Origin: Clostridia bacterium | Lineage (GTDB): Bacteria > Bacillota > Clostridia > Oscillospirales > UBA644 | Direction: 5' to 3' | DNA: 64,000 nucleotides | Assembly (NCBI GenBank): GCA_017623595.1 | Contig: JAGAOU010000044.1 | Location: forward strand, 68,914-132,913 | Part shown: piece by piece, positions 13,879-32,553 of the stretch | Numbering within the stretch: position 1 is the stretch's first letter | Layout: each line of letters begins with the position of its first letter | Notes under the pieces: model-generated | Database searches by the model: none | What the model was told of the DNA's origin: nothing | The model's input: only the letters and a program-made list of their open reading frames with translations | Made by a program: the position numbers and the translations under genes

Positions 13879-14886
13879 ATGGCTGAGAATATCAAATCTC
13901 CCGAGCCCAAAATCCAAGGTGCCGCGAAAAAGCAGCGCGGACCCTTTAAAAAGCGCAGAGCAGGCGTCGTTCTTACCAAGGACGAGGTTATTGCCATCAA
14001 AGCGGGACGTAAGAAATTGCGCCGCGAAATGCGCGCTATGGGCATCAAAAACAGGAAGGAATTCGAGCTTACCGCTTCCAGCCTTGGGCTTTATTTCGAC
14101 AAGAATCGGCGGCTCGCCCTTCTTTGGTGGCTCCTGCGGGGGAGACTGTTCTGGCTGCTGCTTGGTTTGGGGGCATTGCTTTTGACGGCGTTGGCAGGGA
14201 TTTCCTACATCACCGAATTGCAAGGCCATTTCACCATCAGCATGACCGACGACCTCTTTCGGGAAGGCTTCACGCTTTCCGAGACCGTCGGCTTTGAGAA
14301 CCCCACCTCCCACCTCTTTGCCAGCCCGGCAGAAGGAGTCCCCTGTATCTCCATTAAGAATATCCCCACCAACGTGGATGATATTGACGGTCTGCACAAC
14401 GATGAGTATTTTGCTTACACCTTCTATGTCCGCAACGACGGCGAAACTGCCCAGGACTTGGAATGGAACCTTCTTGTCAATTCCGAGAGCCTTGGCATCT
14501 CCGATGCGGCATGGGTGATGCTCTTTGTTGACGGCAAAATGACCGTATACGCAAAGCCTGATGAAAACGGCAATTCTCAGATGTTGCCGGCGCAGGACGA
14601 CGACACCCGCGGTTATGAGAACCTGCCCCTTATTGAAAAAGCGGCAGATCCTCAAGGACAGTTCGAGACCGTTCGCAAGATCGGCGCAGCAGTTCGTTGG
14701 CGCGTTAAGCCAAAGAATTTCCTGTCCGGTACGGCGGTGGATGTCGGTCGGTTTTATAATGTACAGCCGAAGGAAGTCCACAAGTTTACAGTGGTGATTT
14801 GGCTGGAAGGGGACGATCCTCATTGTACCAACGAATTGATCGGCGGACATTTGGGGATGGAGTTCCATCTTGAACTTGTGGAATAA
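13879..14886 (+). CDS. TasA-like family member (335 aa) with ~75-aa basic cytoplasmic N-extension and a single TM helix
   Basis: K/R-rich N-terminus (GAAKKQRGPFKKRRAG ... GRKKLRREMRAMGIKNRKE). Helix LALLWWLLRGRLFWLLLGLGALLLTALAGISY. Ectodomain with FAYTFYVRNDGETAQDLEW, ending VVIWLEGDDPHCTNELIGGHLGMEFHLELVE, the motif shared with the 334- and 441-aa paralogues. Confidence 0.6.
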   Translation: MAENIKSPEPKIQGAAKKQRGPFKKRRAGVVLTKDEVIAIKAGRKKLRREMRAMGIKNRKEFELTASSLGLYFDKNRRLALLWWLLRGRLFWLLLGLGALLLTALAGISYITELQGHFTISMTDDLFREGFTLSETVGFENPTSHLFASPAEGVPCISIKNIPTNVDDIDGLHNDEYFAYTFYVRNDGETAQDLEWNLLVNSESLGISDAAWVMLFVDGKMTVYAKPDENGNSQMLPAQDDDTRGYENLPLIEKAADPQGQFETVRKIGAAVRWRVKPKNFLSGTAVDVGRFYNVQPKEVHKFTVVIWLEGDDPHCTNELIGGHLGMEFHLELVE

Positions 14887-15015
14887 TTCCACGTAACTTT
14901 GATTTTATCGGTGTTTGCGGGTTACGCTCCCCAAAAGCATCGCTAAAATAAACACATGGAAACATTCACGGTTGTTTCCGAAACAAAATTTTATTTCAGA
15001 AAGGAAATGAAAGAA

Positions 15016-17412
15016 ATGGAAAAAGACGAACGCAAAGTTGTCTACGGCATTCGTGGAAAACTCGTCTCTGCCGTGGCTATGCTCCTGGTCGCTTGCATCA
15101 TGGTTGTGTCTTCCACCTATGCATGGTTCACTCTTTCTACGGCTCCCGAAGTAAAGGGTATTTCCACTGCCGTCGGCGCCAACGGTGCCCTTGAAATGCT
15201 TCTTACTTCTTTTGATTCCAGTACCGGTGATATTTTTTCTGGAGACGGTCTGCAGACGGGTGTCACAGATGTTCCTACTCGAAACAAGTATTGGGGAAAC
15301 CTGGTCGATTTGAGCAGTAATACTGAGTATGGATCTAATTTGATTACACTCTACCCCTCCATGTTGGATTTGACCTTGACTGGCGGTTCTGTACCTGTTA
15401 CCGGTCCTGTTTTGTCTACTCCTGAGTATGGGGCAGATGGTCGGCTCGACGCTGTTGAGCGCAACGCAGTCTATGGCAAGTATGACGGTACGGCATTCTA
15501 TCCTGTTAATGACAATGACTACGGCTTCCGTGTCCTTGGTGTTGCTTCCGGTATGACTGAGCGCGAATTGGCATACCGCAATGCGCTTTCTAACATTAAA
15601 GTTAATATGGGTCTTGCCAAGAACTCTGCAGCTGCTTCTATTGAGAATAACGGATCGACTCTTGCCGATATTGCCGTTATTAAGGCTATGCTTGATAGTC
15701 CTAAATTCACTCAAGCACAGATTGATTCTATCTCTGCTATGATTCGTGAACTGAAGGTTGCTCTTGATAGCGTTGAAGAAGCTTACATCCAGTCTATCCT
15801 TGCTCTCGCTGCAAGTGCGGCTGTGCAAGATGAGGCTGGCTATACTGCTATATCGAACTCCATTAATGGATTGACTCGCGTTAGCGGTTCTTCGACTGAT
15901 CTTGATGGAATTATTTCTAACTTGGAAACTGTTGGGGTGTCTTTGCCCGCTAATCTTTCTGCAGGTATTGATGCGTATAAGGCTTCTTTGGCCAATGTTG
16001 TTGCTGCTGAAGGCTTGATTCCGACATCCGGTACAAGTGGTGACACAAATTCTCCCTATCTTTGGGAAGATTTTGATGACGCTTTAAATAAGTTGGTTAA
16101 TATCAACACTATTGAGGTTAATGGTAGTTCTACTATTGACAAAGACAAGATTGCAGGAGACGTTTTTGCAGGTAGAGGTATTACTGTTACTATGCCTACT
16201 GGTTCCGGTGTGTATGCTGATATTGCCGACCAGTGCGGCGACTATTCTGCAGGTATTAAAATTAGTGGCAAAGAGTTGGGTATTAACGAAAGCGCTCCTG
16301 CTACTATGAACACTAAAACTGATATGACAACCGCAGCTAAGGGCGGCTATGTTTATTTGGATGCTGCACACAATGCTGCGTCCGCCGCTGGAACGCCCGA
16401 CACCTCTGGTACTGCAAAGCCTCTTACGGAATTCTATGGTTATGTTATTGACCTTTCTTTCAGAACAAATGCTGCGCAGTCGAAGCTGTTGTTACAGGCT
16501 GAAGGTGTAGATCGTATATATGAGGATAACAATAACGATAATACCATGGGCAGCGGAAGCACCATGACATTCAAAACTGTTGATCCGAGTTTTACCACTG
16601 ATAATATGAGAAACCTCATGGGCAACATTCGAATTGTTTTCTTTGATACTAAGACCGGTACGATTTATGCTCAAGCTCGACTGGAAACCTCTGAAGATGA
16701 AACTCAGACTACGGCAGATGGTATTGTTGCAGAAATGTATATTCCTTTGACTGTTGATGCCTATAAGTATACAATAACGGAAGGTCAGACTTCGACGGAT
16801 TATATTGTGTTCAGAACAGAGACAACAACTGGTGAGGGTGATTCGGCCGTTACGACCTATACCTACTACTCTGACTATGAGAAGACTAAACTTGTTACTC
16901 TTCCCGCCGGTGTTTCTGATCAGGATGTAGTTGCAACAACGACTGAAATCAAGAGCTATGAAATCGCAGATTTGAATCAGAATCAGGCTAAGTATGTATC
17001 TGCACTTGTTTATTTGGATGGTACAACGATTACCAACGCAGATGTTGCTGCCTCTGCTGCTGCCTCTATGACCGGTAAGGTTAATTTCCAGTTTGCAAGC
17101 TCTGCCACCTTGGTTCCTATGGAATATAGTGATCTCCATATTACTGATCAGGTTCCCACTATTACGAAGGATGTAACTATTGAGGCTGACGGTACTGACA
17201 AAACGATCGTTCTTTCCGGGCAGAATGCTACAACCTTTGTGTTTGACGGAACTGCTCCTACAGGATTGTCTATCTCCGGTACAAACTTGACGGTTACCAA
17301 GGATGCCGTAGCGCGTGATTATATTATTCTCGGTAAGGCCTCGGCGGATGCTGATGCAGAAACCTTGGTAAAGATCAAGCTTACCGTAGTGAATAACTAC
17401 GTTGCTCCTTAA
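15016..17412 (+). CDS. large SipW-type-signal, TasA-like family protein (~798 aa)
   Basis: ORF 14956..17412; ATG 15016 has the best RBS spacing (15007 is possible). N-terminus LLVACIMVVSSTYAWFTLSTAPEVKGISTAVGANGALEM. Core motifs YVIDLSFRTNAAQSKLLLQA and ALVYLDGTTITNADVAASAAASMTGKVNFQFASSATLVPM are nearly colinear with the 1704-aa protein. Confidence 0.7.
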   Translation: MEKDERKVVYGIRGKLVSAVAMLLVACIMVVSSTYAWFTLSTAPEVKGISTAVGANGALEMLLTSFDSSTGDIFSGDGLQTGVTDVPTRNKYWGNLVDLSSNTEYGSNLITLYPSMLDLTLTGGSVPVTGPVLSTPEYGADGRLDAVERNAVYGKYDGTAFYPVNDNDYGFRVLGVASGMTERELAYRNALSNIKVNMGLAKNSAAASIENNGSTLADIAVIKAMLDSPKFTQAQIDSISAMIRELKVALDSVEEAYIQSILALAASAAVQDEAGYTAISNSINGLTRVSGSSTDLDGIISNLETVGVSLPANLSAGIDAYKASLANVVAAEGLIPTSGTSGDTNSPYLWEDFDDALNKLVNINTIEVNGSSTIDKDKIAGDVFAGRGITVTMPTGSGVYADIADQCGDYSAGIKISGKELGINESAPATMNTKTDMTTAAKGGYVYLDAAHNAASAAGTPDTSGTAKPLTEFYGYVIDLSFRTNAAQSKLLLQAEGVDRIYEDNNNDNTMGSGSTMTFKTVDPSFTTDNMRNLMGNIRIVFFDTKTGTIYAQARLETSEDETQTTADGIVAEMYIPLTVDAYKYTITEGQTSTDYIVFRTETTTGEGDSAVTTYTYYSDYEKTKLVTLPAGVSDQDVVATTTEIKSYEIADLNQNQAKYVSALVYLDGTTITNADVAASAAASMTGKVNFQFASSATLVPMEYSDLHITDQVPTITKDVTIEADGTDKTIVLSGQNATTFVFDGTAPTGLSISGTNLTVTKDAVARDYIILGKASADADAETLVKIKLTVVNNYVAP

Positions 17413-17450
17413 CCACGGTTGTTAATACATCTCTCTGATTGAGAATTTCG

Positions 17451-17480: not shown

Positions 17481-17530
17481 GACGCGGACTCGCCTCAATT
17501 CTTCGCTGACACTTAACGGAAGGTTTTAAC

Positions 17531-18535
17531 GTGGAACATCAAGCAAATACCCCAACCAAACGCAGACCAAGCAGAAAAACGATGCTCTTCATCTATTTCT
17601 ACCTGATTCTGCTCCTCTTGGCTCTCTCCACGGTGGCCACCTATACATGGTTTTCTCTCTCAAGAACGCCGCAAGTCAGCAATCTGTCCATGTACGTGAC
17701 CTCCCGCTCCGGTTTGGAGCTTGCTCTCGCCCCCGACAGCGAGACCTGGGGAAGCCACCTCTCTTACCTTGATATGGTGCAGGATTCCATACCACTCCGT
17801 CCTGTCACCTGGTCGGAAAAAGATCAAAGATTCTATGCAGCGGTTTTTGGCATCGACGGCAGGCTTACAGGTCAGTGGGAGCCTCTGTCGGATGAGCGTA
17901 ATGCCAATCGCGACAACTACGAAGGTTATTATGTTGTGGGAACCTTTTATGCCCGCACGGGCCAAGATGTTACCGTCTCCCTGACCCACGCCATGGAGGT
18001 TGAAGAGGGCATCAACGGATCGGGCACCTATCTTATCGGTACCCCCAAATGGGACGCCGACCAACTCGCACATTCCAACGCCGGTCAGGGCGCCGAAAAC
18101 GCCGTCCGCATCGGCATCCGCATTACTCCTTTGGACGCAAACAATCAACCCATCTCCCAAGAAGAGACCTTTTTTATCTACGAGCCCAACTGTGACACTC
18201 ATCTCGACGGCTCGCAAGGATACAAAGAGACCCTCAGCATCGACGGAGATACCTCACTTATCCCCAAGGATCGCTTGATTCTTCAGTCTCACACCACGTG
18301 GACCGAATCCGATCCTGTGCAAAATGGTGTGCAAAACTTCACCTTCGGAGAGTTCTTGACCCCGGTCGAGCTCTTTTCTCTGGATTCCAATCAGAAGGTG
18401 ATGATCCGTGTCTATCTTTGGTTGGAGGGCCAGGACGTGGATTGCACAAACGCCATCAAGGAAGCTCAAATCCTTGCAAACCTCCAGTTCCGAGCAGATC
18501 CGGACAATCAATCCGGTATGACTCCATACGAGTAA
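17531..18535 (+). CDS. SipW-type-signal, TasA-like family protein (334 aa)
   Basis: GTG start 7 nt after GGAAGG. N-terminus LLLLALSTVATYTWFSLSRTPQVSNLSMYVTSRSGLELA. Motifs VRIGIRITP, FFIYEPNCDTHLDG and RVYLWLEGQDVDCTNAIKEAQILANLQFRA. Confidence 0.7.
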   Translation: MEHQANTPTKRRPSRKTMLFIYFYLILLLLALSTVATYTWFSLSRTPQVSNLSMYVTSRSGLELALAPDSETWGSHLSYLDMVQDSIPLRPVTWSEKDQRFYAAVFGIDGRLTGQWEPLSDERNANRDNYEGYYVVGTFYARTGQDVTVSLTHAMEVEEGINGSGTYLIGTPKWDADQLAHSNAGQGAENAVRIGIRITPLDANNQPISQEETFFIYEPNCDTHLDGSQGYKETLSIDGDTSLIPKDRLILQSHTTWTESDPVQNGVQNFTFGEFLTPVELFSLDSNQKVMIRVYLWLEGQDVDCTNAIKEAQILANLQFRADPDNQSGMTPYE

Positions 18536-18620
18536 GCCTCGGTTTTTGCCCATACAAAACTTTTTTCGCGCCGTGCCCATTAATTTTATGTGACCGACTT
18601 CCCGCGGTCAGGAGGCATTT

Positions 18621-19442
18621 ATGAACGATAATATCCCTACGAATAATGTAGAGACAACGGTTGTGCCGGAAGTTCCCGCTTCTGCACCCAATCCTTCCCC
18701 CAGAATGAAAAAGAGAAAGAAGAAGAACAACTCCAAGAAAACATTGAATATTGTCATCAATGTGATTCTTGTCGTGGCCATTGTAATTGCCGCAGTTTGT
18801 ACTTACATCTCTTTTGTTACCACCTCCGGGAACGGCGTTCCCAATGTGTTCGGTCTCCGACTTCTGTCGATTCAGACCGACTCCATGTATCCTAAATTTA
18901 AGTCCGGAGATCTGATTATTTCCGTTGGCATCGACGATCCTTCAGAGCTCCGTCCAAAAGATATTATTACCTATTGGACCGTCATCAACGGTGAACGTGT
19001 CCTGAATACCCACCGTATTGAGAACATCTACGATGGCGGCGGGTATCTGATCTTTGAGACCAAGGGTGATAACAACGCCAACGTCGACCCCCTGACCGTC
19101 CATGAATCGGAACTGGTGGGTGTGTACAAGTTCTGTATCCCCGGCGTCGGTAAAGCCCTTGATTACCTGCAGACAAGCACCGGCTTTTTGCTGGTGGTTC
19201 TGATCCCCGTTCTGCTCTTCTTCCTGTATCATCTCGTTCAGTTCTTCCGCGTTTTGTTTGAATATCAGAACGTTAAGAACCGTATTAAGTTTGAGCAGGA
19301 AAGAGGCAAGACGGAAGATCTTCTTGCCGAACAGGCTCAACGTGAGGCTGAGCGTGCCCAGATGGAGGCTGAGTTGCGGGAAAAACTCCGTGCCGAACTT
19401 CTGGAAAGCATGGCCAGAGAAAAAGAATCGAAGGACGAATAA
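18621..19442 (+). CDS. signal peptidase I, SipW-like (ER/archaeal type, S26B), paralogue 1
   Basis: AGGAGG RBS. TM helix, catalytic Ser box QTDSMYPKFKSGDLI, His box NTHRI, and ETKGDNNANVD. Second TM helix near the C-terminus, as in B. subtilis SipW, then a charged tail (...ELREKLRAELLESMAREKESKDE). Confidence 0.8.
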   Translation: MNDNIPTNNVETTVVPEVPASAPNPSPRMKKRKKKNNSKKTLNIVINVILVVAIVIAAVCTYISFVTTSGNGVPNVFGLRLLSIQTDSMYPKFKSGDLIISVGIDDPSELRPKDIITYWTVINGERVLNTHRIENIYDGGGYLIFETKGDNNANVDPLTVHESELVGVYKFCIPGVGKALDYLQTSTGFLLVVLIPVLLFFLYHLVQFFRVLFEYQNVKNRIKFEQERGKTEDLLAEQAQREAERAQMEAELREKLRAELLESMAREKESKDE

Positions 19443-19492: not shown

Positions 19493-21088
19493 ATGGATAA
19501 TTTTTTCAGATACTTTTTCCAGGATATCGGGAATGTTTTCCGCGCTTTCGTGGATGCACTTGTTGCGTTTTGGGACTTTATTTACCTGTTGTTTAACTTC
19601 CCCAAACGCATGGATATTATTGCTCAGTACAACGAATCCTTCTCCACAACGGAGTGGGTTTTGTTGCTGGTGGTCAATCTCATCCTCGTTGCGCTGATTA
19701 TTGTTCTGATTGTCTTTCTTGTAAAACTTTTCCGCAAGATATTCCGTTTCCGCATTTCGCCGAAAAAATACGATGATGTGGTGCGTCAGTTGCGTGCTCT
19801 TCAACGGGATTTGATCCGCGCAAACTACGAAAAGGATCGCCTTCTGGCCATGCGAGTGACTGAAATGGGCGGGAAAGATCCTCTTCCGCAGTTCGAGGGA
19901 ATGGAAGATCAAGAAGAAAATACGGAGCAAACAGAGCCGAAGGAAGATGTTCCCCTCGTATCCGCGAACCGCAATCGGTTCGATTCTCCCTGCGTGGATC
20001 CCGCCGACAGCCGTTTCTTCCGTCTGACCGGTGTGGACAACTTCTATAAAACCGAATATTATCCCCCCGTGTATGATGATAATGTCACCTTAAGTGAGTT
20101 CTGTGAGCGATTCCGCCTCTTTGCGGCATCCAGATTGCATCTGTATTATGATCTTGACATGATGCGGTTCTTTGTTGCGTCTATGGGTGCTGCCAGAATT
20201 ATCATTTTGCAAGGTATTTCCGGTACCGGTAAAACCAGTTTGCCCTATGCCTTCGGTAAGTTTGTTCAGAAGGACTCTACCGTGGTTTCTGTCCAGCCTT
20301 CCTGGCGTGAACGTACTGAGCTTTACGGTTATTTTAACGAATTTACCAAGCGCTATTCCGAAACCGAATTTTTGCGCGCCATTTACGAAGGAAACTATTA
20401 TCGCGATCCCCATGTGGTAATCCTGGACGAAATGAACATCGCCCGCGTGGAATACTACTTTGCGGAGATGCTCTCCATTCTTGAAATGCCGCTTCAGGAA
20501 GAATGGAAGGTCGATATTGTTACTTCTGTTTGGGATAACGACCCCTGCTTGATTGAAGGCGGTACCGTTCGTATTCCCAATAATATTTGGTTCGTCGGTA
20601 CCATCAATAACGACGACTCCACCTTTGCCGTCGCCGATAAGGTGTACGACCGTGCCATCCCCATCGACTTGGACAGCCGTGCGGAACCCTTTGAATGCGA
20701 GGATACCGATCCGATTTTTGTCTCTACAGATCGTCTTAGCTATCTGTTCGAAGAAGCAAAGAGTATGTATCCGGTATCGAATGAAATTCTTGAAAAGCTG
20801 GAGATCGTCAACGAATACGTTATTAAGAATTTCCGTCTGGCCTTCGGTAACCGTGTTATGAAGCAGATTAAGGACTTCGTTCCTTGCTTTGTTGCTTGCG
20901 GCGGAACCGAGCTTCAGGCTGTTGACTTTATTGTTGCGAAGAAAGTTCTCCGTAAACTGGAATCCTTGAGCCTTGGCTTTATGAAGGACGACCTGACGAA
21001 ATTCAGCAGTTTCTTGGATCGTACCTTTGGCAAGAACTCGATGATGTTCTGCAAGAATTATATTGAATTGTTGAAGAAGACCAACTGA
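19493..21088 (+). CDS. membrane-anchored McrB-like (AAA_5) AAA+ NTPase
   Basis: Two N-terminal hydrophobic segments (VFRAFVDALVAFWDFIYLLFNF; WVLLLVVNLILVALIIVLIVFLVKLF) and a short coiled coil. Walker A ILQGISGTGKTS. Walker B plus McrB-type helix VVILDEMNIARVEYYFAEMLSILE. IPNNIWFVGTINNDDSTFAVADKVYDRA matches the McrB 'N-x-x-i-i-G-T-M-N-t-a-D-r-S' region as I recall it. Confidence 0.7.
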   Translation: MDNFFRYFFQDIGNVFRAFVDALVAFWDFIYLLFNFPKRMDIIAQYNESFSTTEWVLLLVVNLILVALIIVLIVFLVKLFRKIFRFRISPKKYDDVVRQLRALQRDLIRANYEKDRLLAMRVTEMGGKDPLPQFEGMEDQEENTEQTEPKEDVPLVSANRNRFDSPCVDPADSRFFRLTGVDNFYKTEYYPPVYDDNVTLSEFCERFRLFAASRLHLYYDLDMMRFFVASMGAARIIILQGISGTGKTSLPYAFGKFVQKDSTVVSVQPSWRERTELYGYFNEFTKRYSETEFLRAIYEGNYYRDPHVVILDEMNIARVEYYFAEMLSILEMPLQEEWKVDIVTSVWDNDPCLIEGGTVRIPNNIWFVGTINNDDSTFAVADKVYDRAIPIDLDSRAEPFECEDTDPIFVSTDRLSYLFEEAKSMYPVSNEILEKLEIVNEYVIKNFRLAFGNRVMKQIKDFVPCFVACGGTELQAVDFIVAKKVLRKLESLSLGFMKDDLTKFSSFLDRTFGKNSMMFCKNYIELLKKTN

Positions 21089-21112
21089 TAAAACAGGAAA
21101 GGAGTGTACGCC

Positions 21113-23002
21113 GTGGCTGAAAGCAAAAAGAAGGCCCCTGCGGTTGAACAGAAAGAAAGCGATAATGTCGAGATTCTGTTTCAAAAGTATGTGAAAAGCG
21201 TAGTGCGCGCTCTCGGTAGTACACAGTTTTATCAGTATTTTATGGAATCTGTTGCAAGCGCGGAAAATGAAATTCAATTTTCCAACCGCCGCATGGAAAA
21301 AATTGTGGATACCGAATGGATCGATGCGGTTGAAAGTGCGTTGACCGGATTCCAAAACATTATCGAAAGTCCCCGTAATGTTATTCGCGAGGACGAATTG
21401 ATTGTTAATGTCGCCAATGCGAAAAAGACCGGCAGTGATGTGGTTCGTCACCTTTCTATGCATGCTTCTCTTGTTGAAGATTTCAACGAAGAAAGCGGCG
21501 ATGTTCGTCCCAGCAAGTTGATGCAGAAGTATCGCGAGGACTCGATCGGTCAGGTTTATGAGAACCGTGTTGTTTTTACAACACTGGAAATGGCTTATCA
21601 GTTTGTCAAGATCCGTCATGACGCACTTCTGAGTGCCATGAGTGAGGAGTTCGGCGCAAAGCTTAAGGTTAAGACCGATATGTCCAATCCTGTGGAATCG
21701 GTCCATATGGATATGTTTTTGCATATTCGTGACGTAGACGGTGCGCTGGATACGGACGATAAAAATCGGGAGGTTTTTGACCGTATTTCCCGTCTCTATC
21801 GGTTGCTTGCCAATGATATGAACAGCCATTTTGCCCGTCATATGTCTCGCTATCCTCGCGTGAAGGGTTCTGTTACAAAAACCAACGTGTTGAAGCGGAA
21901 TAAGAATTACCGTGTTATTTTGGAGCTTTTGGAGTATTTGCGGAGTTACGGTGATATTGGTTATACCATAAAAATCATTGAGCAAAACCCGCAGATTGAC
22001 GAAGTGTTCGAAAAGAATATTTTCCACAACGTATTGTTTCAGTATCTTCTGTTGAAAAACCATTTGGAACGGGATAAGGATCGTCGCCTCCCCTCTCCGA
22101 TGAAGGAGAAGAAGCGTGTTCTGAAGCCCAAATTTATCAAGGAAATTATCGAAGAGCTCACCGAAGATTATGATCTTCCCGACGTTGAGGTTCGTAAGGT
22201 TCTGATTGAAGAACTTACCAAGGAACAGCTGCTTCAGGAAGAAGCCGCGGAACGCAGACGTCTTGTGGAAGAGCAGGCACAGCGTAAGAAGGAAGAAGAA
22301 GCCCGTCGCAAGCAGGAAAAAGAAGCCGAGAAAGAGCGTCTCCGTCAGGAGCGTGAGGCTGAAAAGGAACGCCTGCGCCAAGAGCGTGAAGCCGAAGAAC
22401 AACGTTTGTTGATCGAACGCATGGAACGTGAGCAGGAAGACCGTCGCCGCAGTCGCTTGTTTAAGGCAGATCTTGACTTGTTTGCTAAGAATTTTGACGA
22501 GCGTTTGGAGCTTCGTGCACAGGCAAAAGCGATCAGAGAAACGGTTTCGCAGGATTTTGAAGATGCTGCATACATTTTGGAAGAGACCGAACGTCTGAAA
22601 AAAGAAGAAGCCGATCGAAAGAGACAGCGCAGACGGGAGGAGATGGAGCGTCGCCGTCAAGAAGAACGGGATGCTCAACTTCGGGCTTTGGCCGAAGAAG
22701 AAGCCAGACGTCAGGAAGAGATCCGTCAACAACAAGAGGCGGAAGCACTCTTGCGACAGCAATTGGCAGAACAGGAAGAGGCTGAGCGCAGAGAGCAGGA
22801 ATTCCGTGATCAGCAGGCCGTTGCCATATTTGTGAATGAGTTGGCTCTCTTTGGAAACGGTTTTCAAGCGCGATTGTTCTTGCGAGCGCAGGAGGAGCAG
22901 AGACTTCTGCAGCTTCGTGCCGCATTTGATGAAGAAAAGAGAAAGCGGCAGGATGCAAAAACCGCAGAGGAAAATCGCCGTTGGAGATTTGGTAAACGAT
23001 GA
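21113..23002 (+). CDS. partner of the AAA+ protein: ~330-aa N-domain + ~280-aa E/R/K/Q-rich coiled-coil or single-alpha-helix region; no nuclease motif seen
   Basis: ORF 21104..23002; GTG 21113 is 8 nt after AGGAAAGGAG. The N-domain contains ...DSIGQVYENRVVFTTLEMAYQFV... and sits in the position McrC/DUF2357 proteins occupy next to McrB. The C-terminus is extremely charged. The stop overlaps the next start (ATGA at 22999-23002). Confidence 0.6.
   Translation: MAESKKKAPAVEQKESDNVEILFQKYVKSVVRALGSTQFYQYFMESVASAENEIQFSNRRMEKIVDTEWIDAVESALTGFQNIIESPRNVIREDELIVNVANAKKTGSDVVRHLSMHASLVEDFNEESGDVRPSKLMQKYREDSIGQVYENRVVFTTLEMAYQFVKIRHDALLSAMSEEFGAKLKVKTDMSNPVESVHMDMFLHIRDVDGALDTDDKNREVFDRISRLYRLLANDMNSHFARHMSRYPRVKGSVTKTNVLKRNKNYRVILELLEYLRSYGDIGYTIKIIEQNPQIDEVFEKNIFHNVLFQYLLLKNHLERDKDRRLPSPMKEKKRVLKPKFIKEIIEELTEDYDLPDVEVRKVLIEELTKEQLLQEEAAERRRLVEEQAQRKKEEEARRKQEKEAEKERLRQEREAEKERLRQEREAEEQRLLIERMEREQEDRRRSRLFKADLDLFAKNFDERLELRAQAKAIRETVSQDFEDAAYILEETERLKKEEADRKRQRRREEMERRRQEERDAQLRALAEEEARRQEEIRQQQEAEALLRQQLAEQEEAERREQEFRDQQAVAIFVNELALFGNGFQARLFLRAQEEQRLLQLRAAFDEEKRKRQDAKTAEENRRWRFGKR
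22328..22393 (+). repeat. tandem 33-nt (11-aa) duplication EKERLRQEREA x2 inside the charged region
   Basis: gagaaagagcgtctccgtcaggagcgtgaggct / gaaaaggaacgcctgcgccaagagcgtgaagcc give an identical peptide with synonymous differences. Confidence 0.8.
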
Positions 23003-24324
23003 AAAATACAGTTGGCAAGCTGCTTGCAGCTTCTATGGCTCTGATTCTTTCGGTTGCGATGGTGGTTACAATCACTTACGCATGGACCACACTTTCCACG
23101 ACTCCCGTTGTGGAGGGGGTGCAGATTGCTATCAGCGGAAGCAGCACCATTCTGATTGCCCCCGATCTTTCTGAGGTTGTTGATGGAACTACTTATCACT
23201 ATCCGGGACATTTCAGTGATAATTTGAATTTTTCTCGTTATGAAAATTACTCGTATCTGTCCTCGCTTGATGCCCTTTCTCCCGTTTCGACCTCGAATGG
23301 CTTGCATTGGTTTCTTCCCGAGTATTATGATATTTCCGATGAAGCGGTTAAGAACGGTGAAGCTCGGGTCGGTGATGTGAAGCCTGTCCGTGATTTTGTT
23401 TTGGATACTGAGTTGGAGTTTGCAAATCTCAGCGGATCGGATGCTTCGACCGACGGACATTATCTCTATTTGGATTTTTGGGTTGTTTCTCCTTCCACGA
23501 ATTATACGCTTCGCATTTCCCGCGGAGATGAAAGTGGCGGCAGTTATTTGCTGGAGCTTCCTACCGTTTCTTCGAATGAGAGCGGATATACCTTGACGGA
23601 CAGTGATGGCTCTTTTGCGGCCGCTGCCCGCATCGGATTTTTGGCAAATACGGACTATGTTACAGATAACACCATGGTGTATTATCAAAAAAGTCCTGCC
23701 TATAATGACCAATTTCGTCGTTTGAGCGGTTTTTATCAGGAAAAGGGTTCTCTTCTCTATTCCGGAGATTATCGGTTCTTAATTTACGAGCCAAACGGGG
23801 ATCTGCATCCCGGGACGGAAAATACCGGATATGTTGCCACAACGCCGGTTGCAACCGATGGAAATCAAGTGTTCCTTGCCGATATCCGAGATCGTTTGAG
23901 TGTACAGCTTAATAATATTTGGAAAAAGAACGGCTCGGAATCTATTCTCCTGGAGCAGATTTTTCAAACTGCAATCTCCGGGAAGGATGTGGAGTCTCCC
24001 CAAGATGCTGCATCTCTCTTTTATGACGATTATTTGCAGGGGCAGTTTGCTCCTTATGTAACTACAGGGTCTTTTGTTTCGAATATATCCGCTTTGTACG
24101 GATGTATGGAAAATGATGGTTTCTCGGTGAGTGCTGAGGCCATGAATTCACTGAATTTATCAGGTGCTACAGAAGATACTTATATTGTAAAATTGGAAAA
24201 AAACGTACCGCAACGGATCCGTATGTTTGTTTGGATTGAGGGGCAGGATGTAGACTGCGATTCCTCTGCAAGCAACCGACGGTTTGCGTTGAGCATTGAA
24301 CTTGCGGGAAGCAATCAAGATTGA
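22999..24324 (+). CDS. SipW-type-signal, TasA-like family protein (441 aa)
   Basis: N-terminus LILSVAMVVTITYAWTTLSTTPVVEGVQIAISGSSTILIA. Motifs YLYLDFWVVSPSTNYTLRISRG, AAARIGFL, FLIYEPNGDLHPG and RMFVWIEGQDVDCDSSASNRRFALSIELAG. Confidence 0.7.
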   Translation: MKNTVGKLLAASMALILSVAMVVTITYAWTTLSTTPVVEGVQIAISGSSTILIAPDLSEVVDGTTYHYPGHFSDNLNFSRYENYSYLSSLDALSPVSTSNGLHWFLPEYYDISDEAVKNGEARVGDVKPVRDFVLDTELEFANLSGSDASTDGHYLYLDFWVVSPSTNYTLRISRGDESGGSYLLELPTVSSNESGYTLTDSDGSFAAAARIGFLANTDYVTDNTMVYYQKSPAYNDQFRRLSGFYQEKGSLLYSGDYRFLIYEPNGDLHPGTENTGYVATTPVATDGNQVFLADIRDRLSVQLNNIWKKNGSESILLEQIFQTAISGKDVESPQDAASLFYDDYLQGQFAPYVTTGSFVSNISALYGCMENDGFSVSAEAMNSLNLSGATEDTYIVKLEKNVPQRIRMFVWIEGQDVDCDSSASNRRFALSIELAGSNQD

Positions 24325-24326
24325 TT

Positions 24327-25055
24327 ATGAAGCATGCAGACAACAGAACGAAGATTCGGAACAGAATAATATCGGCATCGGTCACAGTCCTGTTGGTTCT
24401 ATCACTGTTTTGCTGTTTGTATGTGATTGTTCAGGTCTTGACCTGTGGATATGTTTCTTTTGGCGGTCATTGCTTTTTTCGGGTTGTGACCGGCAGTATG
24501 GAGCCTTCCCTCTCTGTGGGAGAATTGATTCTGACCGATGATGTGGACATCAAAGAGATCTGCGTCGGGGATGTTGTCAGTTTCCGTTCTCAATCGATCG
24601 ATACCATGGGGAATATTATTACCCACCGGGTGGTGGATGTTTCGCACAATGCAATGGGTGAAATCCAACTTTTGACGAAGGGGGATGCGAATCTGTCTGT
24701 GGATGGAATGTATGTAACCGCCTCGAATTTAATCGGAAAAGTTGTTTGGTCTTCCGGAGACAGTTTCCTTGCCTCCGTGATGTCGTTTTTGTCCGGTCGG
24801 TATGGTTTTCTCGCATGTATTGTATTTCCCTGTCTGCTAATTCTTGGCTTTGTGTTGAAAGACAATGTTAAGTCTATGAGACGCGACATGAAGAAGCTTG
24901 TAGATACAATGGAAAAATCCGGGGAAGATGTGGCACTGGTGTCTTCGGATGTTATTGCAGAAGAAGATTATGATGCTATGCGTGAACGCCTTCGTGCGGA
25001 ATTGATGGAGGAGCTATTGAATCGTGATGTTGAAGCACAGTCGAGAGAAGAATAA
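24327..25055 (+). CDS. signal peptidase I, SipW-like, paralogue 2
   Basis: ATG 24327 (TTG 24321 possible). Ser box VVTGSMEPSLSVGELI, His box ITHRVV, and LTKGDANLSVD. C-terminal TM helix FLACIVFPCLLILGFVL, then a charged tail ...MRERLRAELMEELLNRDVEAQSREE. Confidence 0.8.
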   Translation: MKHADNRTKIRNRIISASVTVLLVLSLFCCLYVIVQVLTCGYVSFGGHCFFRVVTGSMEPSLSVGELILTDDVDIKEICVGDVVSFRSQSIDTMGNIITHRVVDVSHNAMGEIQLLTKGDANLSVDGMYVTASNLIGKVVWSSGDSFLASVMSFLSGRYGFLACIVFPCLLILGFVLKDNVKSMRRDMKKLVDTMEKSGEDVALVSSDVIAEEDYDAMRERLRAELMEELLNRDVEAQSREE

Positions 25056-26963: not shown

Positions 26964-27533
26964 ATGAACCGGAAAAAGAAAATATGTCTTCTTTCGTTGT
27001 GCATGATCTTTCTCTTTCTGACGGTTGTTTCGGTTTCTGTGGGTGATACATTTGCCCGCTATACAACGCAGTTTTCGGGCATCGTTTCCTATTCTGCAGG
27101 ATCCATCCCCTCATTTAAAGTAAACGATGAAAGTGTGGTTTCTTCCCATTCGTTGAAACCCGACGCGGATGCCTGGACTTCCTTGGGAGGCGAAAAGATT
27201 TATTCTTTTGATGTTTCTGCTACAGACTCCGCACGTAATACTCAGCTTCGGGTTCGCGTTTTTGTCGAGGAGGATGAATCTGCCACGATGCCAACCGTTG
27301 CTTTGACAATGGATGACACCCGCTATACTTCCCAATTCGACTACCTTGGTCAAAATACCCCCTTTTACCTGTTGCATAAAACCGAGGGATGGTATTACTG
27401 TTTTACCCTTGAAAATGAAGAAATTCTGTGTTTTTTGAATGGCAACGAAAGTAAAACCCTTACCGTTTCCGTCCACAACACCGAAATTGATTTGTCTCGC
27501 ATCTGGATTTGTATTGATCGAGTTTCTGCTTGA
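26964..27533 (+). CDS. small SipW-type-signal protein (~189 aa)
   Basis: ATG 26964 is 8 nt after GGAG. N-terminus KKKICLLSLCMIFLFLTVVSVSVGDTFARYTTQFSGIVSYSAGS (T-F/Y-A-x-F/Y motif). No other recognisable domain. Confidence 0.55.
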   Translation: MNRKKKICLLSLCMIFLFLTVVSVSVGDTFARYTTQFSGIVSYSAGSIPSFKVNDESVVSSHSLKPDADAWTSLGGEKIYSFDVSATDSARNTQLRVRVFVEEDESATMPTVALTMDDTRYTSQFDYLGQNTPFYLLHKTEGWYYCFTLENEEILCFLNGNESKTLTVSVHNTEIDLSRIWICIDRVSA

Positions 27534-27558
27534 TCCCATTGCTCACAGGAGAATGAAT

Positions 27559-30500
27559 ATGAGAGAATCGCAAAGAAGAATTAACGAGTACAAACGAGCC
27601 CTTCCCCGATTAAAGGAGAAGGTAATCGCTGTTGCTTTGTTGCTTGCCGTATCCGCATCTATGATGGTTACGGTTACTTTTGCATGGGTTGCTTTGTCTA
27701 CAAACCCTGAAGTGAGTGGTGTTAATACCAGCATTGCCTCCAACGGTAACCTGGAGATCGCCCTTGCTACGGGCACTCTGACCGATGCCTCCGCTCCCGG
27801 CGCATCTCAGATCGGCGACAGTAACCTCGATACCCTCCTGCGTAACGTCACCTGGGGCAACCTGATCAATTTGGGCGATGCCCGCTACGGCCTCGATAAT
27901 ATTGTTCTCCGTCCTGCTCTTCTCTATGAAAGTGAGTTAATCACCTCTCCTCTTTATGGTCCGGTGTATGATGCTTCTGGACGGGTGGTTGATTTGAATA
28001 CTAACTTTGGTTATTCTAAGTGGAAGGAGTCTGCAAGTCGTTTTGAAGATACGGATGAACTGGGAATTCGTGCCATTACCTCTATGGTATACGGTGAAGA
28101 TAGTGATGCAAGCATCTACGGAGAAAGACTGAATCGTATTAAATCTGACATTCGTAGAGCTCAGGTTAACTACCAGAATATGGCTTATAACCAAGAATAC
28201 ATGGATGCATTGGCATCTATGATGACGGGTTATATGGTTCAAAATGTTTTAAAGGTAAACTCTTCGGTTGGGGGTATGATTAGCGATGCGACAATTCTTA
28301 AAAACGATTTGAAACAATTTTCATCTATGTATAGAACATTGATGGATAGTTATGTTGAATTTGCAGATGTATTAGCCTCACTTCTCAACCTTCAGGCAGA
28401 GTTGAATGGTAAAAGCATTTCAATTACCGGCGCTCAAATAATGGAACTGCCGTATGATACAGATACAAAAAGTGCTTATAATGCGCTTTTGGAAATGGGG
28501 TTTGAGACCTGTTCTGCTGACGATAAAACGATCGGGTTTGTGGAGGAAGTCGACCTGTTTTTGTCGGATTATAATATTTTGGTGAATGATGTTGTTAGAA
28601 TTGACAATTTGATTTCCAGTATTAGCGGCACTTCTGTTTCTTGGCCTAAATCGCCTGTTGTTGAAGGAACGGAAAAGAAATTAATCGATGATATTATCGA
28701 TAATCTTGTCAATGTAAAGGAATGTACGATTACCGGTGGTGAGTATAAAAATTTAAAGATTAAGAGTGTTGGTGCGACTGCAGCAATGAGCTTGAAGAAT
28801 GCCGGAACTTGTGAAACAAAAATAACAAATGGTGTATTGTACAATTTCGATAGTATCACCGGTGCAAGAATTAAAAATCCCGATGGAAATCCTTTGAAAT
28901 TGACTGTTCAGGTAATGGGGACTCAGACCATTACTTCCAATGTTTCCACAAGCGCAGAGGGTGACTATTTTGCTAATGAAGTGACTTTGGTTAAGGGTAT
29001 TATTGACGATAAGTTTAGTGAGCCTAAGTTAATCGCCAACGATACCTACGGCTTTGCTGTGGATTTTTGGGTTCGCACCAATGCCGCAAATTCTTATCTT
29101 ACCCTTCAGGGTAATGTTCTTACCGATACCGAAATGGTTGATGTGAAAGGTAAAGACCTCGATGGTAACGAGGTTCAGCTTTATACCATTACTGTGAAGG
29201 TACAGACCGAAGAATCGGAAAGCACCTCCTCCGACTCTTCCTCAAACACTGAGGGCGGTGGGCTTCTTGAGGACTTGAATACTGTCTCCTATGATGTATA
29301 TTACTATCCTCAGAAGGATGCTGACGGAAAAGATGTAACGGATGATCAGGGCAAAGTTGTCAACGATCTTCGCTATGCCTCCAACCATCAGATCGTGACT
29401 GCGGAGAGCCTTGGTCTTGCGGAAGGGGATCCTATCCCTGAACCCAGTAAAAAGGTTGAGGAAGTGGAATACGTCATTGGCTTTGAGGGCGACAACCGTA
29501 TATGGGAAGGGGATCAGCACTCCCTGCTTTCCGTCAATAGCACTACTCAGGGTAGTGGTAGTTGTTATGTCTTTTATGCCGAGACTCCCGTTGATCAGGA
29601 ACGCAGTTTGGAGCTTCTGAAATCTATGAAGGTTGCCTTTGTTTCGGCGGATGGTACTCTTCTTGCTACTGCCTATATGGATTCCGATCGTCATTTTTCA
29701 GATAGTGGTAAGGTGATCGTTCCCATGGTTCTGGATAGCGAGAGCACCAGTATTGGTACCGACGAAGATGGTAATATTCGTTATGCAATTACTGCCCTTG
29801 AGCAGAATGTTCCTACCCGTATTACTGCTATTGTATATTTGGATGGCTCCGATTTGACCAATGATGATGTTCTTGCTTCTGCTGATATCGAAGGGCGCAT
29901 GAACATTCAGTTCGGTTCTTCTGCGGTTCTTTATCCTCTCGATAATGAAACTCTTTACAATGCCGAACTGTACGCGGAAGTGGATTCGATTTCTCCCGGA
30001 AGCTTCGACTATGATACTTTGGCCGAGGGCGATTCTATGACTTCCCACGTAAAGGTTCGTATTACGGGAACACAGCCAAAAGTTGTTATAGCAAACTTCA
30101 TTCGCCGCATCAATGCCACCCAGGGCTCTCCCGAAGACACCTTTATTCTTACGGATGCCGATGGTGACGGTGTTTGGGAAGGGGATTATACCTTCCTTTC
30201 TCCTGGTACGTATATCCTTCGCAGTGTCACCATGGACGGCGTGGAGCGCGACCTTCAGGTTCCCTCCGGCGTGGAGGGGAAACAATATCCCACAGTTGTA
30301 GTCAAAGGCTTTTCTATTTCTTCGGTTAATTACAGCATGTCCCGTTTTGTTATGACCGACGCAGGCTCTTATAGCGGAACGGTTTCCTTGAAGTTTGCTA
30401 CCGATGATCCTGAAAAGATGCCAACCTCCGTCATCGGGAAATTTACCCGTGGTGACGGTGTCGCCGTCAACGTCAATTTTGTTTATAACCCGACTTCTGG

Positions 30501-32553
30501 GGACTGGCAAGGACGTGCTGATTTTGTTTCTTCCGGGGAATATACTATGCAGTATGTGATTCTTGATGGTGAATATACTGAACTCGCTCAAAATCACCAG
30601 TGTACCGTCGAACTCATCCTCGGCATGCGCGTTCATGTTGAAACGCTCTCTGATACTAACATGATTTATGGTGATGAAAACACTCCCGAGACATTGGAAA
30701 TGCGTGTGCAGATTCTTGACAACAGTGGTAACCTTATTCCGTCTCTTGCAAACGCCGACCTGTATTATTCGATGGGTGGTCCCGAAATACTTCACACTCG
30801 CCTGATATGGAATGGTGATTTGGAGGTGTATGAAGGAGAGTTTAGGACTGCTGCCGGTACATGGCGTTTTAGTCGTGTTGAAATTGAAATGGGTAATAAC
30901 AGTAAGAATACTCTTACTGCAGTTAACTCGAATGCTCCCGTTTTTGTTATTATTCCTCCCACTCCTCCCACCTTTGTTAGGGGCGATGGCACATTGGCGC
31001 AACTGATGACCAAGGCTTCGGATAAGGGATCTGTTTTCGTCTATTTGAAGGATGCTACTTCTGCAAAGGTTGTGGCAATGCTTGTAAATGAAGAAGGCAA
31101 GGTTGATTATGTTCTGCCCAAGGCACAGGATAGTGGCGGAGACTTCTTTGTAGACGGTGACAAACAGGGCTTTATATTCCCTGTGGATGACGGTTTGTGG
31201 ACGTTGAAAGCTGTTTCTGCATTCAATGTCTTTGATAGTGACAGTAATCTCCACTCCCTGCCTTCTGATGGCACCGTTGATACGGAAGAGGACTTCGAAT
31301 CCGGTGTTGTCTTTGAGGTCAACGCTGAGCCCGTTGCAGTGCTTCATACTTCTGCCATTGAAATCAATGTGAACTATGATGAAACCCTTGCGGGCTTTTC
31401 CGCAAAGGATGAGGCAACAAAGACCTATTACTACGGTACCGATGCCAACAAGAATCCTACCGCCGGGTTTATGACCTCTCATGCTCTCGCAAAGGATAGT
31501 ATTGTAGTTACTTTCAGCGATCCCTACGGATTTATTCGTAGCGGTAAGTTTACTATTTCCAACGTTAAGGCTAATTTGGAATATGACACTGTAAATACTA
31601 CCTATGGTGGTTATACTGCGGTTTCCAATGCTCCTGTGAGTGGAGTAATTCATACGCCTCTTTCCTTTGTTGGTTCCGGAACGAGATTTACTCTTAGCGA
31701 TGCTGTTTCCTTGCAGTATGCTGCAAAATATGGATTCTCGGATAGTGATTCTCTGAATGACATCATCACCTATGATGTCACGCCGGCTATTGCAAAAGCA
31801 GAAGCAAAAACCGTGACTGGTGCAGCAAAGAATGCGTATACGTTTGAAGTTTGGTCGAAGGCACCGACGGTATATATTTCTGATATTACTATGGATGGTG
31901 CAGGGGCGTATTCTGTGGATCTACATACAACAGGATCGCTGGCAGATACATCTACGTATAAAACAGAGTCGAGCGGTTGCTTTACTGACTATGTTTATAC
32001 TTGTACAACAAATAAAAACCACATATTTGCAAGCAAAAACACAGGGTATATTTCAAGAATAGAAGAAGGTTCTTTGACTGCATGGTTGTATTTCAAGTGT
32101 AATCATGATGATGTTGAAACGTATGATGGTGGAAGGGTAAACGGATATAACGGAGGCGCGACTTTTAAGGGACATACTTATCTTTATAATAATGGAAACG
32201 GCGTCCCCGCTGCGACTTTGACACTTACAGACATGGGGAAGGCGACTAACGCTAAACTGACATTTGTTAAATCCGGTGGTGGTGAAGTTGTCATGATTAC
32301 TCAGTATACCGCTGATCGATCTGGTGGAACGTATTGGGGTGATTACAATACATATGGAACCGATTCTTATGTGTGGAATAGTAATGGTGAATGTAAACGT
32401 TTCATTGGTGTTATGGATAATGGTGCAGGCAGTAACAAGAGTGATACAAAAACTGTTGCTGGAACTATTATTGCGGATACCTTAACGTTGACATATAACG
32501 GGGTTCAGTATTCGGTTCCTATAGCAAAGATTACAATCAATAATCCTTATTAA
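27559..32553 (+). CDS. giant SipW-type-signal, TasA-like family protein (~1664 aa) with long C-terminal extension
   Basis: ORF 27439..32553; ATG 27559 is 7 nt after AGGAG. N-terminus AVALLLAVSASMMVTVTFAWVALSTNPEVSGVNTSIASNGNLEIA. Motifs FAVDFWVRTNAANSYLTLQG and AIVYLDGSDLTNDDVLASADIEGRMNIQFGSSAVLYPL at about residue 790. These are followed by ~900 aa of beta-rich sequence and a Cys/Gly/Asn/aromatic-rich terminal module. Confidence 0.75.
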   Translation: MRESQRRINEYKRALPRLKEKVIAVALLLAVSASMMVTVTFAWVALSTNPEVSGVNTSIASNGNLEIALATGTLTDASAPGASQIGDSNLDTLLRNVTWGNLINLGDARYGLDNIVLRPALLYESELITSPLYGPVYDASGRVVDLNTNFGYSKWKESASRFEDTDELGIRAITSMVYGEDSDASIYGERLNRIKSDIRRAQVNYQNMAYNQEYMDALASMMTGYMVQNVLKVNSSVGGMISDATILKNDLKQFSSMYRTLMDSYVEFADVLASLLNLQAELNGKSISITGAQIMELPYDTDTKSAYNALLEMGFETCSADDKTIGFVEEVDLFLSDYNILVNDVVRIDNLISSISGTSVSWPKSPVVEGTEKKLIDDIIDNLVNVKECTITGGEYKNLKIKSVGATAAMSLKNAGTCETKITNGVLYNFDSITGARIKNPDGNPLKLTVQVMGTQTITSNVSTSAEGDYFANEVTLVKGIIDDKFSEPKLIANDTYGFAVDFWVRTNAANSYLTLQGNVLTDTEMVDVKGKDLDGNEVQLYTITVKVQTEESESTSSDSSSNTEGGGLLEDLNTVSYDVYYYPQKDADGKDVTDDQGKVVNDLRYASNHQIVTAESLGLAEGDPIPEPSKKVEEVEYVIGFEGDNRIWEGDQHSLLSVNSTTQGSGSCYVFYAETPVDQERSLELLKSMKVAFVSADGTLLATAYMDSDRHFSDSGKVIVPMVLDSESTSIGTDEDGNIRYAITALEQNVPTRITAIVYLDGSDLTNDDVLASADIEGRMNIQFGSSAVLYPLDNETLYNAELYAEVDSISPGSFDYDTLAEGDSMTSHVKVRITGTQPKVVIANFIRRINATQGSPEDTFILTDADGDGVWEGDYTFLSPGTYILRSVTMDGVERDLQVPSGVEGKQYPTVVVKGFSISSVNYSMSRFVMTDAGSYSGTVSLKFATDDPEKMPTSVIGKFTRGDGVAVNVNFVYNPTSGDWQGRADFVSSGEYTMQYVILDGEYTELAQNHQCTVELILGMRVHVETLSDTNMIYGDENTPETLEMRVQILDNSGNLIPSLANADLYYSMGGPEILHTRLIWNGDLEVYEGEFRTAAGTWRFSRVEIEMGNNSKNTLTAVNSNAPVFVIIPPTPPTFVRGDGTLAQLMTKASDKGSVFVYLKDATSAKVVAMLVNEEGKVDYVLPKAQDSGGDFFVDGDKQGFIFPVDDGLWTLKAVSAFNVFDSDSNLHSLPSDGTVDTEEDFESGVVFEVNAEPVAVLHTSAIEINVNYDETLAGFSAKDEATKTYYYGTDANKNPTAGFMTSHALAKDSIVVTFSDPYGFIRSGKFTISNVKANLEYDTVNTTYGGYTAVSNAPVSGVIHTPLSFVGSGTRFTLSDAVSLQYAAKYGFSDSDSLNDIITYDVTPAIAKAEAKTVTGAAKNAYTFEVWSKAPTVYISDITMDGAGAYSVDLHTTGSLADTSTYKTESSGCFTDYVYTCTTNKNHIFASKNTGYISRIEEGSLTAWLYFKCNHDDVETYDGGRVNGYNGGATFKGHTYLYNNGNGVPAATLTLTDMGKATNAKLTFVKSGGGEVVMITQYTADRSGGTYWGDYNTYGTDSYVWNSNGECKRFIGVMDNGAGSNKSDTKTVAGTIIADTLTLTYNGVQYSVPIAKITINNPY

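Follow-up and report, generated by a model that had tools for sequence, protein, structure and literature searches.

The DNA analysed here, a 64,000-nucleotide stretch of a Clostridia bacterium genome (assembly GCA_017623595.1, contig JAGAOU010000044.1, positions 68,914 to 132,913 of the forward strand; hereafter the window), contains a cluster of twelve tightly packed + strand genes between positions 12378 and 32553. In this order, they encode an HD-GYP-like protein, the three cargo-type proteins P335, P818 and P334, a SipW-type signal peptidase (SipA), an McrB-like GTPase, an McrC-like coiled-coil protein, P441, a second SipW-type peptidase (SipB), and finally P622, P191 and P1704. Several of their stop and start codons overlap, indicating that the cluster is a single operon. 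A first-pass annotation, made from the sequence alone, had placed seven open reading frames (ORFs), two peptidase genes and an ATPase/coiled-coil pair on this strand. All of them were recovered at those coordinates, as were the N-terminal strings it quoted and the internal motifs RTNAA..S.L.LQ, IYEPN[CG]D.H and WLEG/YLDG, the last leading into a terminal QF. The conserved unit, as delimited below, reaches upstream at least to the HD-GYP-like gene at 12378. The GC content of the locus is unremarkable, and a scan of the locus for promoters and terminators returned signal at the level of shuffled sequence, and was thus uninformative.

Five of the seven cargo-type proteins have a mature domain in common: P335 (13879..14886), P818 (14956..17412), P334 (17531..18535), P441 (22999..24324) and P1704 (27553..32553). 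Profile comparison with hhalign aligned the P441 and P334 families over 299 columns (probability 99.6%, E 1e-23), identifying P441 as a full-length paralogue of P334, the smallest full member of this WxEGxDxDC family. The P818 family aligned with the superfamily over its N-terminal 106 columns (probability 99.3%) and also contains the C-terminal motif. In BLASTP searches P818 matched P1704 with E-values of 5e-19 and 4e-10, making it a paralogue of the N-terminal ~850 amino acids of P1704, which are followed by a C-terminal extension of ~850 amino acids without recognised domains. For P335, the similarity to the P334 superfamily is confined to the C-terminal 45 columns (…VIWLEGDDPDCT…; probability 97%, E 9e-11). 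P622 (25024..26892) and P191 (26958..27533) resemble the other cargo in the signal peptide only (hhalign; probability 42% for P191), so that the proposal of seven paralogues applies to five of the proteins.

The superfamily around P334 is large, with 1021 homologues in 90% clusters and 961 representatives at E<=1e-3 in 50% clusters, and is marked by the invariant signature A-W … P … R(IGF) … (IY)EPN … W-EG-D-DC-N. It corresponds to no Pfam or NCBIfam family, the cluster members carry no source name, and the 43 distant members that we scanned share no domain. Pfam and PADLOC scans of the seven cargo proteins, and an NCBIfam scan of the six other than P1704, likewise gave no match. An AlphaFold2 (AF2) model of P334 (mean predicted local distance difference test score, pLDDT, 85.4; predicted template-modelling score, pTM, 0.79) is all-beta, with a helix at residues 15-44 followed by ~19 strands. 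P622 combines a beta-rich N-domain, unrelated to the other cargo, with a C-terminal beta-helix-like region that gave a weak PF13229 Beta_helix match in the orthologue from locus L001, and is a candidate tip or enzymatic subunit. The AF2 model of its N-domain reached a pLDDT of 68, limited by a homologue search that yielded just 11 sequences. P191, a small secreted protein with a variant signal, evolves fast: its 11 orthologues are 22-31% identical, and tblastn located it in 9 loci.

P335 is a bitopic membrane protein, in which a conserved, basic cytoplasmic N-domain of ~75 amino acids and a single transmembrane helix (amino acids 90-108) precede an extracellular domain ending in WLEGDDPHC. An uncleaved family member with a conserved cytoplasmic domain would fit the role of an anchor or nucleator, and P335 indeed looks like an uncleaved membrane anchor or base subunit, given that none of the sequences in a 40-orthologue alignment contains the x-A-W motif of the other cargo.

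For P1704, the gene is present as first annotated, with a start that needs revision. The longest ORF begins at 27439 and overlaps the end of P191 by 95 nucleotides. An in-frame ATG at 27553 (MNMRESQRR…) lies 20 nucleotides past the stop codon of P191; a start there would keep the whole signal helix, making this ATG the probable true start of a protein of 1666 amino acids. Several long ORFs coincide with cluster genes, in a different frame or on the opposite strand, at 18298-18624 (+), 20090-22867 (-), 29698-31653 (-) and 13816-14892 (-); one of them, 925 amino acids long, runs antisense to the GTPase and coiled-coil genes. All are unsupported and most likely reflect the compositional bias of the sense genes.

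In six of the seven cargo-type proteins, a hydrophobic helix is followed by x-[YFI]-[AT]-W, which takes the variant form A-R-Y in P191. The motif had been ascribed to all seven, with P335 as a divergent case; it is near-invariant in the orthologues of these six and missing from P335. Directly after the hydrophobic region, the longer pattern [ST]-Y-[AT]-W-F-x-L-S-x-x-P-x-V occurs in 65/68 orthologues of P818, 79/81 of P334, 64/64 of P441 and 3/3 of P1704, the window signals, with the putative cleavage site marked, being …SSTYA|WFTLSTAPEVKG in P818, …ITYA|WTTLSTTPVVEG in P441 and VTFA|WVALSTNPEVSG in P1704. P622 reads …FTIA|WQTNIVQTGG, with the A-W invariant across 40 orthologues, and P191 …DTFA|RYTTQFSG, with [GA]-R-Y conserved and R-Y invariant among its orthologues (n=11). 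The signal motif is the sole region common to all six families. Among the paralogues, the first ~15 mature residues are also the best-conserved segment, with 42-50% identity compared to ~20-25% elsewhere.

Aligned by hhalign to a TasA profile built from 42 PF12389 proteins, the superfamily profile placed aTyAWF over the TasA sequence GGGTWAAF (E 0.0017). In the TasA fibre structure in the PDB (8aur), the chain begins at A28, immediately after GTWA, and residues 28-38 form the TasA donor strand (PMC9674648). TIGR04088, the model for SipW-cognate signals, matched two of the 43 distant family members (best E 8.8e-4); at E<=1, the six window proteins other than P1704 gave no match. The earlier likening of these N-termini to the SipW-cognate class is supported by the TasA alignment and the distant relatives; as a deduction from sequence, a SipW-substrate-type N-terminus is well supported. 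A transmembrane scan detected no second helix in any of the cleavable proteins, and after cleavage none of the six would retain an anchor.

Both peptidases are of the SipW type, as had been proposed. SipA (18621..19442; 273 amino acids) and SipB (24321..25055; 244 amino acids) score 89.5 and 84.7 bits against TIGR02228, the archaeal/SipW-type model with a cutoff of 51.85, and both match the Bacillus SipW model NF046067 (E 2e-30 for SipA) below its equivalog cutoff of 190 bits. They are related to each other (BLASTP E 1e-16), and both contain the SMxP, THR and GD[NA]N boxes, which most orthologues keep (60-66 of 66 for SipB). Judged by these residues, they are catalytically intact SipW-type signal peptidases. 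In each, a second, C-terminal transmembrane helix precedes a charged cytoplasmic tail of 65-70 amino acids; in SipA, the other helix is N-terminal and the tail measures ~65 amino acids. B. subtilis SipW, with its 190 amino acids, has space for a short tail only. The SipB tail includes …RLRAELMEELL…, and an LRAEL(L/M)E-like motif, searched with a loose pattern, is found in the window pair as well as in 17/77 SipA and 34/66 SipB orthologues. The coiled-coil McrC-like protein might dock on these tails. In the window, the McrBC-like pair and P441 lie between the two TIGR02228-positive genes, an arrangement kept in >70 loci.

The McrB-like protein (19493..21088; 531 amino acids) is predicted to be membrane-anchored: a transmembrane helix at amino acids 56-74 is followed by a heptad-like coiled coil at ~85-125 and a GTPase domain at ~225-400. 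Its profile matches E. coli McrB (6hz4) with an E-value of 4.6e-4, AAA_5 was detected in 39/39 orthologues, and the protein matches the PADLOC candidate-defence model PDC-M26A (E 6.6e-41). The closest annotated relative in a plasmid collection is encoded on the Deinococcus sp. AJ005 plasmid p96k (locus L085, 22358-41683), in an operon of the composition VWA-PP2C-…-large AAA protein-AAA-DUF2357, in agreement with what has been published on type II/III CoCoNuT systems that include a TerY-P triad. Identity between the two GTPase domains is 38% (E 2e-64), and GTINNDDST aligns with GTANHDETT without gaps. The NxD(+D/E) signature defines this branch of McrB-like GTPases in Bell et al. (PMC11090510). 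Within it, N372 and D375 are invariant in the 39 orthologues, and the gap-free alignment to a CoCoNuT-type GTPase places the window protein in the NxD branch.

Its McrC-like partner (21104..23002) consists of a DUF2357 N-domain (amino acids 1-345) and ~290 amino acids of coiled coil, in which the combined fraction of E, R, K and Q is 0.57. PF09823 was matched by 34/39 orthologues (best E 1.4e-8), and the family aligned with a DUF2357 protein from a distant locus (L083) that passes the Pfam gathering score (37% identity; hhalign probability 100%, E 5e-72). Domain scans found no nuclease and a transmembrane scan no transmembrane helix in the window protein. The C-terminal half (window 22140-23002) contains ER/K-rich repeats such as EKEAEKERLRQEREAEKERLRQ, reminiscent of a single-alpha-helix spacer, and a short amphipathic motif breaks them at two points (DLDLFAKNFDERLELRAQ at amino acid 459 and ELALFGNGFQARLFLRAQ at amino acid 582). 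By eye, orthologues keep the two interruptions with loosely conserved sequence; a regular expression for a recurring hydrophobic motif matched none of the orthologous coiled coils.

When one genome per species was scanned for the pattern, 304 matches were confirmed, and 80 loci were fetched for synteny and identity counts. Almost without exception, these keep the order (FIVAR-FIVAR-)HD-P335-P818-P334-SipA-McrB-McrC-P441-SipB-P622-(P191)-P1704, and the core recurs in the distant locus L083, bearing out the expectation of a conserved gene neighbourhood. The carriers are assemblies labelled Oscillospiraceae, Acutalibacteraceae, Faecousia, Vescimonas, Angelakisella and others, from human, ruminant and bird guts. 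The best-conserved genes are SipA (57-83% identity), the GTPase (58-79%), the N-domain of the McrC-like protein (40-83%) and the HD-GYP-like gene (40-72%), with the cargo being more variable. The GTPase pair had first been seen as an embedded extra, an AAA+ module inserted among the cargo genes; as an McrB/McrC-like pair that is among the best-conserved parts of the locus, it belongs to the core machinery instead.

L083, whose P334-like protein shows 39% identity, is organised along the same lines from smaller components. It encodes a histidine kinase and response regulator, an HD protein, two P335-like anchors, McrB and DUF2357 proteins, two S26-family (SipW-like) peptidases, and cargo with the signals TYAWF, TFAWY, AIAWY and RAKY. 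A third, short S24/S26-like peptidase gene after the P191-like one (20020-20577, +; 185 amino acids) gave only a weak Peptidase_S24 match (E 0.0023, below the gathering score), suggesting that different versions of the system have different numbers of dedicated peptidases. An origin of the locus from a mobile element or prophage was considered and rejected: among 50,697 phage records there were two weak matches to the GTPase, and the plasmid matches are CoCoNuT-type loci.

The first gene of the conserved core (12378..13865; 495 amino acids) encodes a protein with an HD_5 domain (E 8.9e-14) and a weakly EAL-like C-terminal half (E 0.0013). It is syntenic in 58 fetched loci, and an HD/HD_5 gene occupies the equivalent place in L083. 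In the window protein YHQLGK replaces the HD dyad (YHEIG in the L083 counterpart) and HMERWDGSGYP is kept. Rather than an active phosphodiesterase, this is probably a degenerate sensor of a second messenger.

The first-pass annotation knew of no described system of this composition. Bell et al. (eLife 2024; PMC11090510), however, name one in a single paragraph, deferring its description to a later paper: CoCoPALM, with an NxD McrB-like GTPase fused to an FtsB-like transmembrane and coiled-coil domain, coiled coils on both the McrB and the McrC homologue, and associated genes of the signal peptidase family. They inferred a fibre or pilus function for such loci. A full-text literature search for the name returned only this paper and its preprint, and nothing beyond that paragraph was found; the composition itself is no longer undescribed. 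Three of the four features stated there are present in the window, namely an NxD GTPase, a DUF2357 protein with coiled coil, and signal-peptidase genes. We therefore regard the locus as very probably of the CoCoPALM type. The likeness extends to the N-terminal transmembrane helix and coiled coil of the GTPase and to a nuclease-less McrC homologue with fused coiled coil. On the other hand, the published text contains no cargo proteins, SipW-type signal motif, P335 anchor or HD-GYP-like gene, and calls the peptidases 'pilus assembly factors', whereas those of the window retain their catalytic boxes.

The locus overlaps in part with several better-known systems. As in the B. subtilis tapA-sipW-tasA operon, B. 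cereus CalY and C. perfringens sipW-bsaA, a SipW-type peptidase is encoded beside its presumed substrates; an aromatic residue follows T-aromatic-A in the cleavage motif, P335 can be compared to TapA as an accessory or anchor subunit, and the mature N-terminus appears to be the functionally critical segment. The TasA operons lack the second peptidase, the five to six large and diverse substrates, the cytoplasmic McrBC-like GTPase pair and the long peptidase tails, and the mature window cargo has no detectable Peptidase_M73/TasA homology. Like CoCoNuTs, the locus pairs an NxD-branch GTPase, 38% identical to a CnuB-like protein, with a DUF2357 protein, and both proteins carry fused coiled coils. 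CoCoNuTs, in contrast, always contain a nuclease or HEPN domain, often helicases and TerY-P triads, and are cytoplasmic; the window locus has no nuclease, HEPN, helicase or TerY-P component, is membrane-tethered and is linked to secretion. Nor does it have the hallmarks of McrBC type IV restriction, as the McrC-like protein carries no PD-(D/E)xK nuclease and the N-terminus of the McrB-like protein is a transmembrane helix and coiled coil instead of a DNA-binding domain. Archaeal filaments of the TasA superfamily (AbpA, AbpX, CanA and Saci_0406 threads) resemble the locus in having secreted beta-sandwich subunits encoded beside signal peptidase I genes. Their subunits measure 150-200 amino acids, though, they involve no NTPase, and their sole resemblance to the P334 model consists of sub-threshold Foldseek matches, with no significant match in sequence or structure.

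On balance, we lean towards a reading in which the SipW peptidases, the membrane-anchored McrB/McrC-like GTPase pair and the secreted proteins together build a surface fibre, in the following steps. Precursors would insert through Sec and be held by their signal helices until the SipW enzymes cut after T/S-x-A, freeing an N-terminal W-F-x-L-S-x-x-P-x-V-x-G segment that could either join subunits as a strand or be recognised by the machinery as a tag. As the mature cargo has neither a wall nor a membrane anchor, we infer that it is retained on the cell by assembly on P335 into a heteromeric fibre, in which P334, P441 and P818 would form the shaft, with P622 (beta-helix) and P1704 (long extension) as distal adhesive or enzymatic parts. 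In the cytoplasm, a hexamer of the McrB-like protein together with the McrC-like protein might gate or power assembly, through a putative coiled-coil link from the GTPase pair to the charged SipW tails, to the cytoplasmic domain of P335, or to both, and the degenerate HD-GYP/EAL-like protein may couple the system to a second messenger. That the locus produces a polymeric surface fibre is, taken as a claim of its own, close to evenly balanced. More doubtful is the furthest-reaching form of the proposal, which we put forward tentatively: an uncharacterised class of Gram-positive filaments, sortase-independent and distinct from type IV pili, whose SipW-released subunits would be joined through their new N-termini on P335, with assembly or extrusion through the cell wall gated or powered by an McrB/McrC-type GTPase exapted from a restriction system.

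Several results weigh against this fibre reading. Foldseek searches of the PDB with the models of P334 and the P622 N-domain returned nothing at E<=1e-3, and left TasA (8aur and 5of1) outside the top 50. Sequence and profile searches of the PDB with P334, P622, P191 and the family profiles were empty or yielded noise. In the AF2 monomer of P334, the helix at 15-44 runs straight through the T-Y-T-W-F motif, so that cleavage is predicted by analogy only. No DivIC/FtsB match was obtained from Pfam at E<=1 in the 39 GTPase orthologues, making the FtsB-likeness of the GTPase an architectural one. Finally, every carrier found is a metagenome-assembled genome.

An alternative that preserves the fibre and demotes the ATPase to an accessory is that the cargo proteins are enlarged jelly-roll subunits of the TasA/camelysin superfamily, polymerising by TasA-like N-terminal donor-strand complementation. 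The TasA-like cleavage motif and the SipW peptidases are what this idea would predict, and the P622 N-domain aligned by hhalign not only with the TasA signal peptide but also with the first ~60 mature residues, including PGD…N.GS (E 0.0017, probability 15.6%); by eye, the C-terminal …LDG…N…G.hxFxF… of the cargo resembles the C-terminal TasA strand. Among the 50 top Foldseek matches of the P334 model are three, all below threshold, to 7pnb (the Saci_0406 thread, with the highest probability at 0.57), 9dlo (CanA) and 7ueg (AbpA), which a 2026 preprint places together within the TasA superfamily. Noticed after the fact in a predicted model, these matches are a weak hint that may keep the TasA idea alive and do not establish it. 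The remaining comparisons run the other way. Peptidase_M73 (PF12389) matched none of the seven proteins (E<=1 for the six shorter ones, E<=0.1 for P1704) and none of the 43 distant relatives (E<=0.01). Against TasA, hhalign probabilities stayed at or below 16% and the alignments were essentially limited to the signal peptide, as seen for the P334 orthologues (E 0.28), the diverse superfamily profile (E 0.0017, probability 15.5%) and P191 (E 0.036). The top 50 Foldseek matches of both models, from which 8aur and 5of1 are missing, have E-values of at least 0.014 and TM-scores of at most 0.36, and the ~290-amino-acid, ~19-strand domain of P334 exceeds the TasA jelly roll in size. The TasA-like mature domains of the first-pass annotation are thus not borne out, and both true membership of the subunits in the TasA superfamily and the TasA-type assembly built on it appear unlikely to us.

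Comparably improbable in our estimate is that the genes are dedicated to exporting and processing a set of independent, non-polymerising proteins, secreted or on the surface, with the McrBC-like GTPase regulating or quality-controlling the peptidases. The variety of the cargo in size and architecture (191-1704 amino acids, with a beta-helix and a long extension), the lack of relation of P622 and P191 to the rest, and the failure of Foldseek to detect a filament-subunit fold in the two models would all be expected of such a pathway, and the neighbouring genes encode other surface proteins as well (dockerin-like, FIVAR and BspA-type leucine-rich-repeat proteins). It would, however, leave six cleaved proteins without an anchor. 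The strongest conservation among the paralogues lies in the first ~15 mature residues, which an N-terminus that is simply discarded or exposed would not explain, and an uncleaved P335 with a conserved cytoplasmic domain suits an anchor or nucleator.

A further idea is that of an anti-phage or conflict system, descended from McrBC/CoCoNuT, whose secreted proteins would serve as envelope-level effectors or as a barrier; the GTPase is closest to a CoCoNuT-type CnuB (38% identity) and matches PADLOC PDC-M26A, and DUF2357 is otherwise a domain of restriction systems (PMC11090510). We consider this highly improbable, as domain scans found no nuclease, HEPN, helicase or DNA/RNA-binding domain in the locus, PADLOC matched none of the other genes, only two of the 50,697 phage records matched the GTPase, and GC content is unremarkable. 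Defence islands are patchy in distribution, unlike this locus with its fixed order and high identity in the same chromosomal context of ~80 species.

The flanks of the conserved core contain further genes for surface proteins. Upstream lies a clade-specific, syntenic block (3035..12355, +; Pfam matches), whose membership of the system is uncertain. It comprises a secreted protein of 2044 amino acids (3035-9169), with a C-terminal dockerin match of 20 bits, below the cutoff of 22.9, and two FIVAR-repeat proteins (9187-10758 and 10829-12355), both of which combine a signal peptide with a C-terminal transmembrane anchor. The same order is found in L001, L002 and ~50 loci, and is absent from L083. 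The N-terminal ~130 amino acids of the FIVAR proteins appear cohesin-like by eye, with no match to Pfam Cohesin. Together, the three proteins may provide a dockerin-cohesin pair for surface display that is linked to the system. Directly downstream (window 32609-35184, +) are genes for an Lgt-like membrane protein of 245 amino acids, from the prolipoprotein diacylglyceryl transferase family, and for a BspA-type leucine-rich-repeat (LRR) protein of 591 amino acids with a C-terminal transmembrane helix. The flanks of the fetched loci stop inside the P1704 orthologues; in L082 and L069, Lgt/LRR homologues are located upstream instead.

The locus is a member of a kind that has been named yet remains uncharacterised, CoCoPALM, and its interest lies in the repurposed restriction-type GTPase and in its wide spread in gut Clostridia. 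With ~300 matching stretches among species-representative genomes, most of them from uncultured gut and rumen Oscillospirales, it concerns abundant commensals whose surface structures are essentially unknown. Should the mechanism proposed here hold true, a GTPase machine with no known role outside DNA restriction would have been co-opted for building or controlling a fibre on the cell surface, which would constitute a new assembly principle for Gram-positive pili and biofilm fibres. It would at the same time give a function to a protein family of ~1000 clusters that lacks any annotation, and would supply the missing description of CoCoPALM, covering the cargo with its cleavage motif as well as a candidate anchor.

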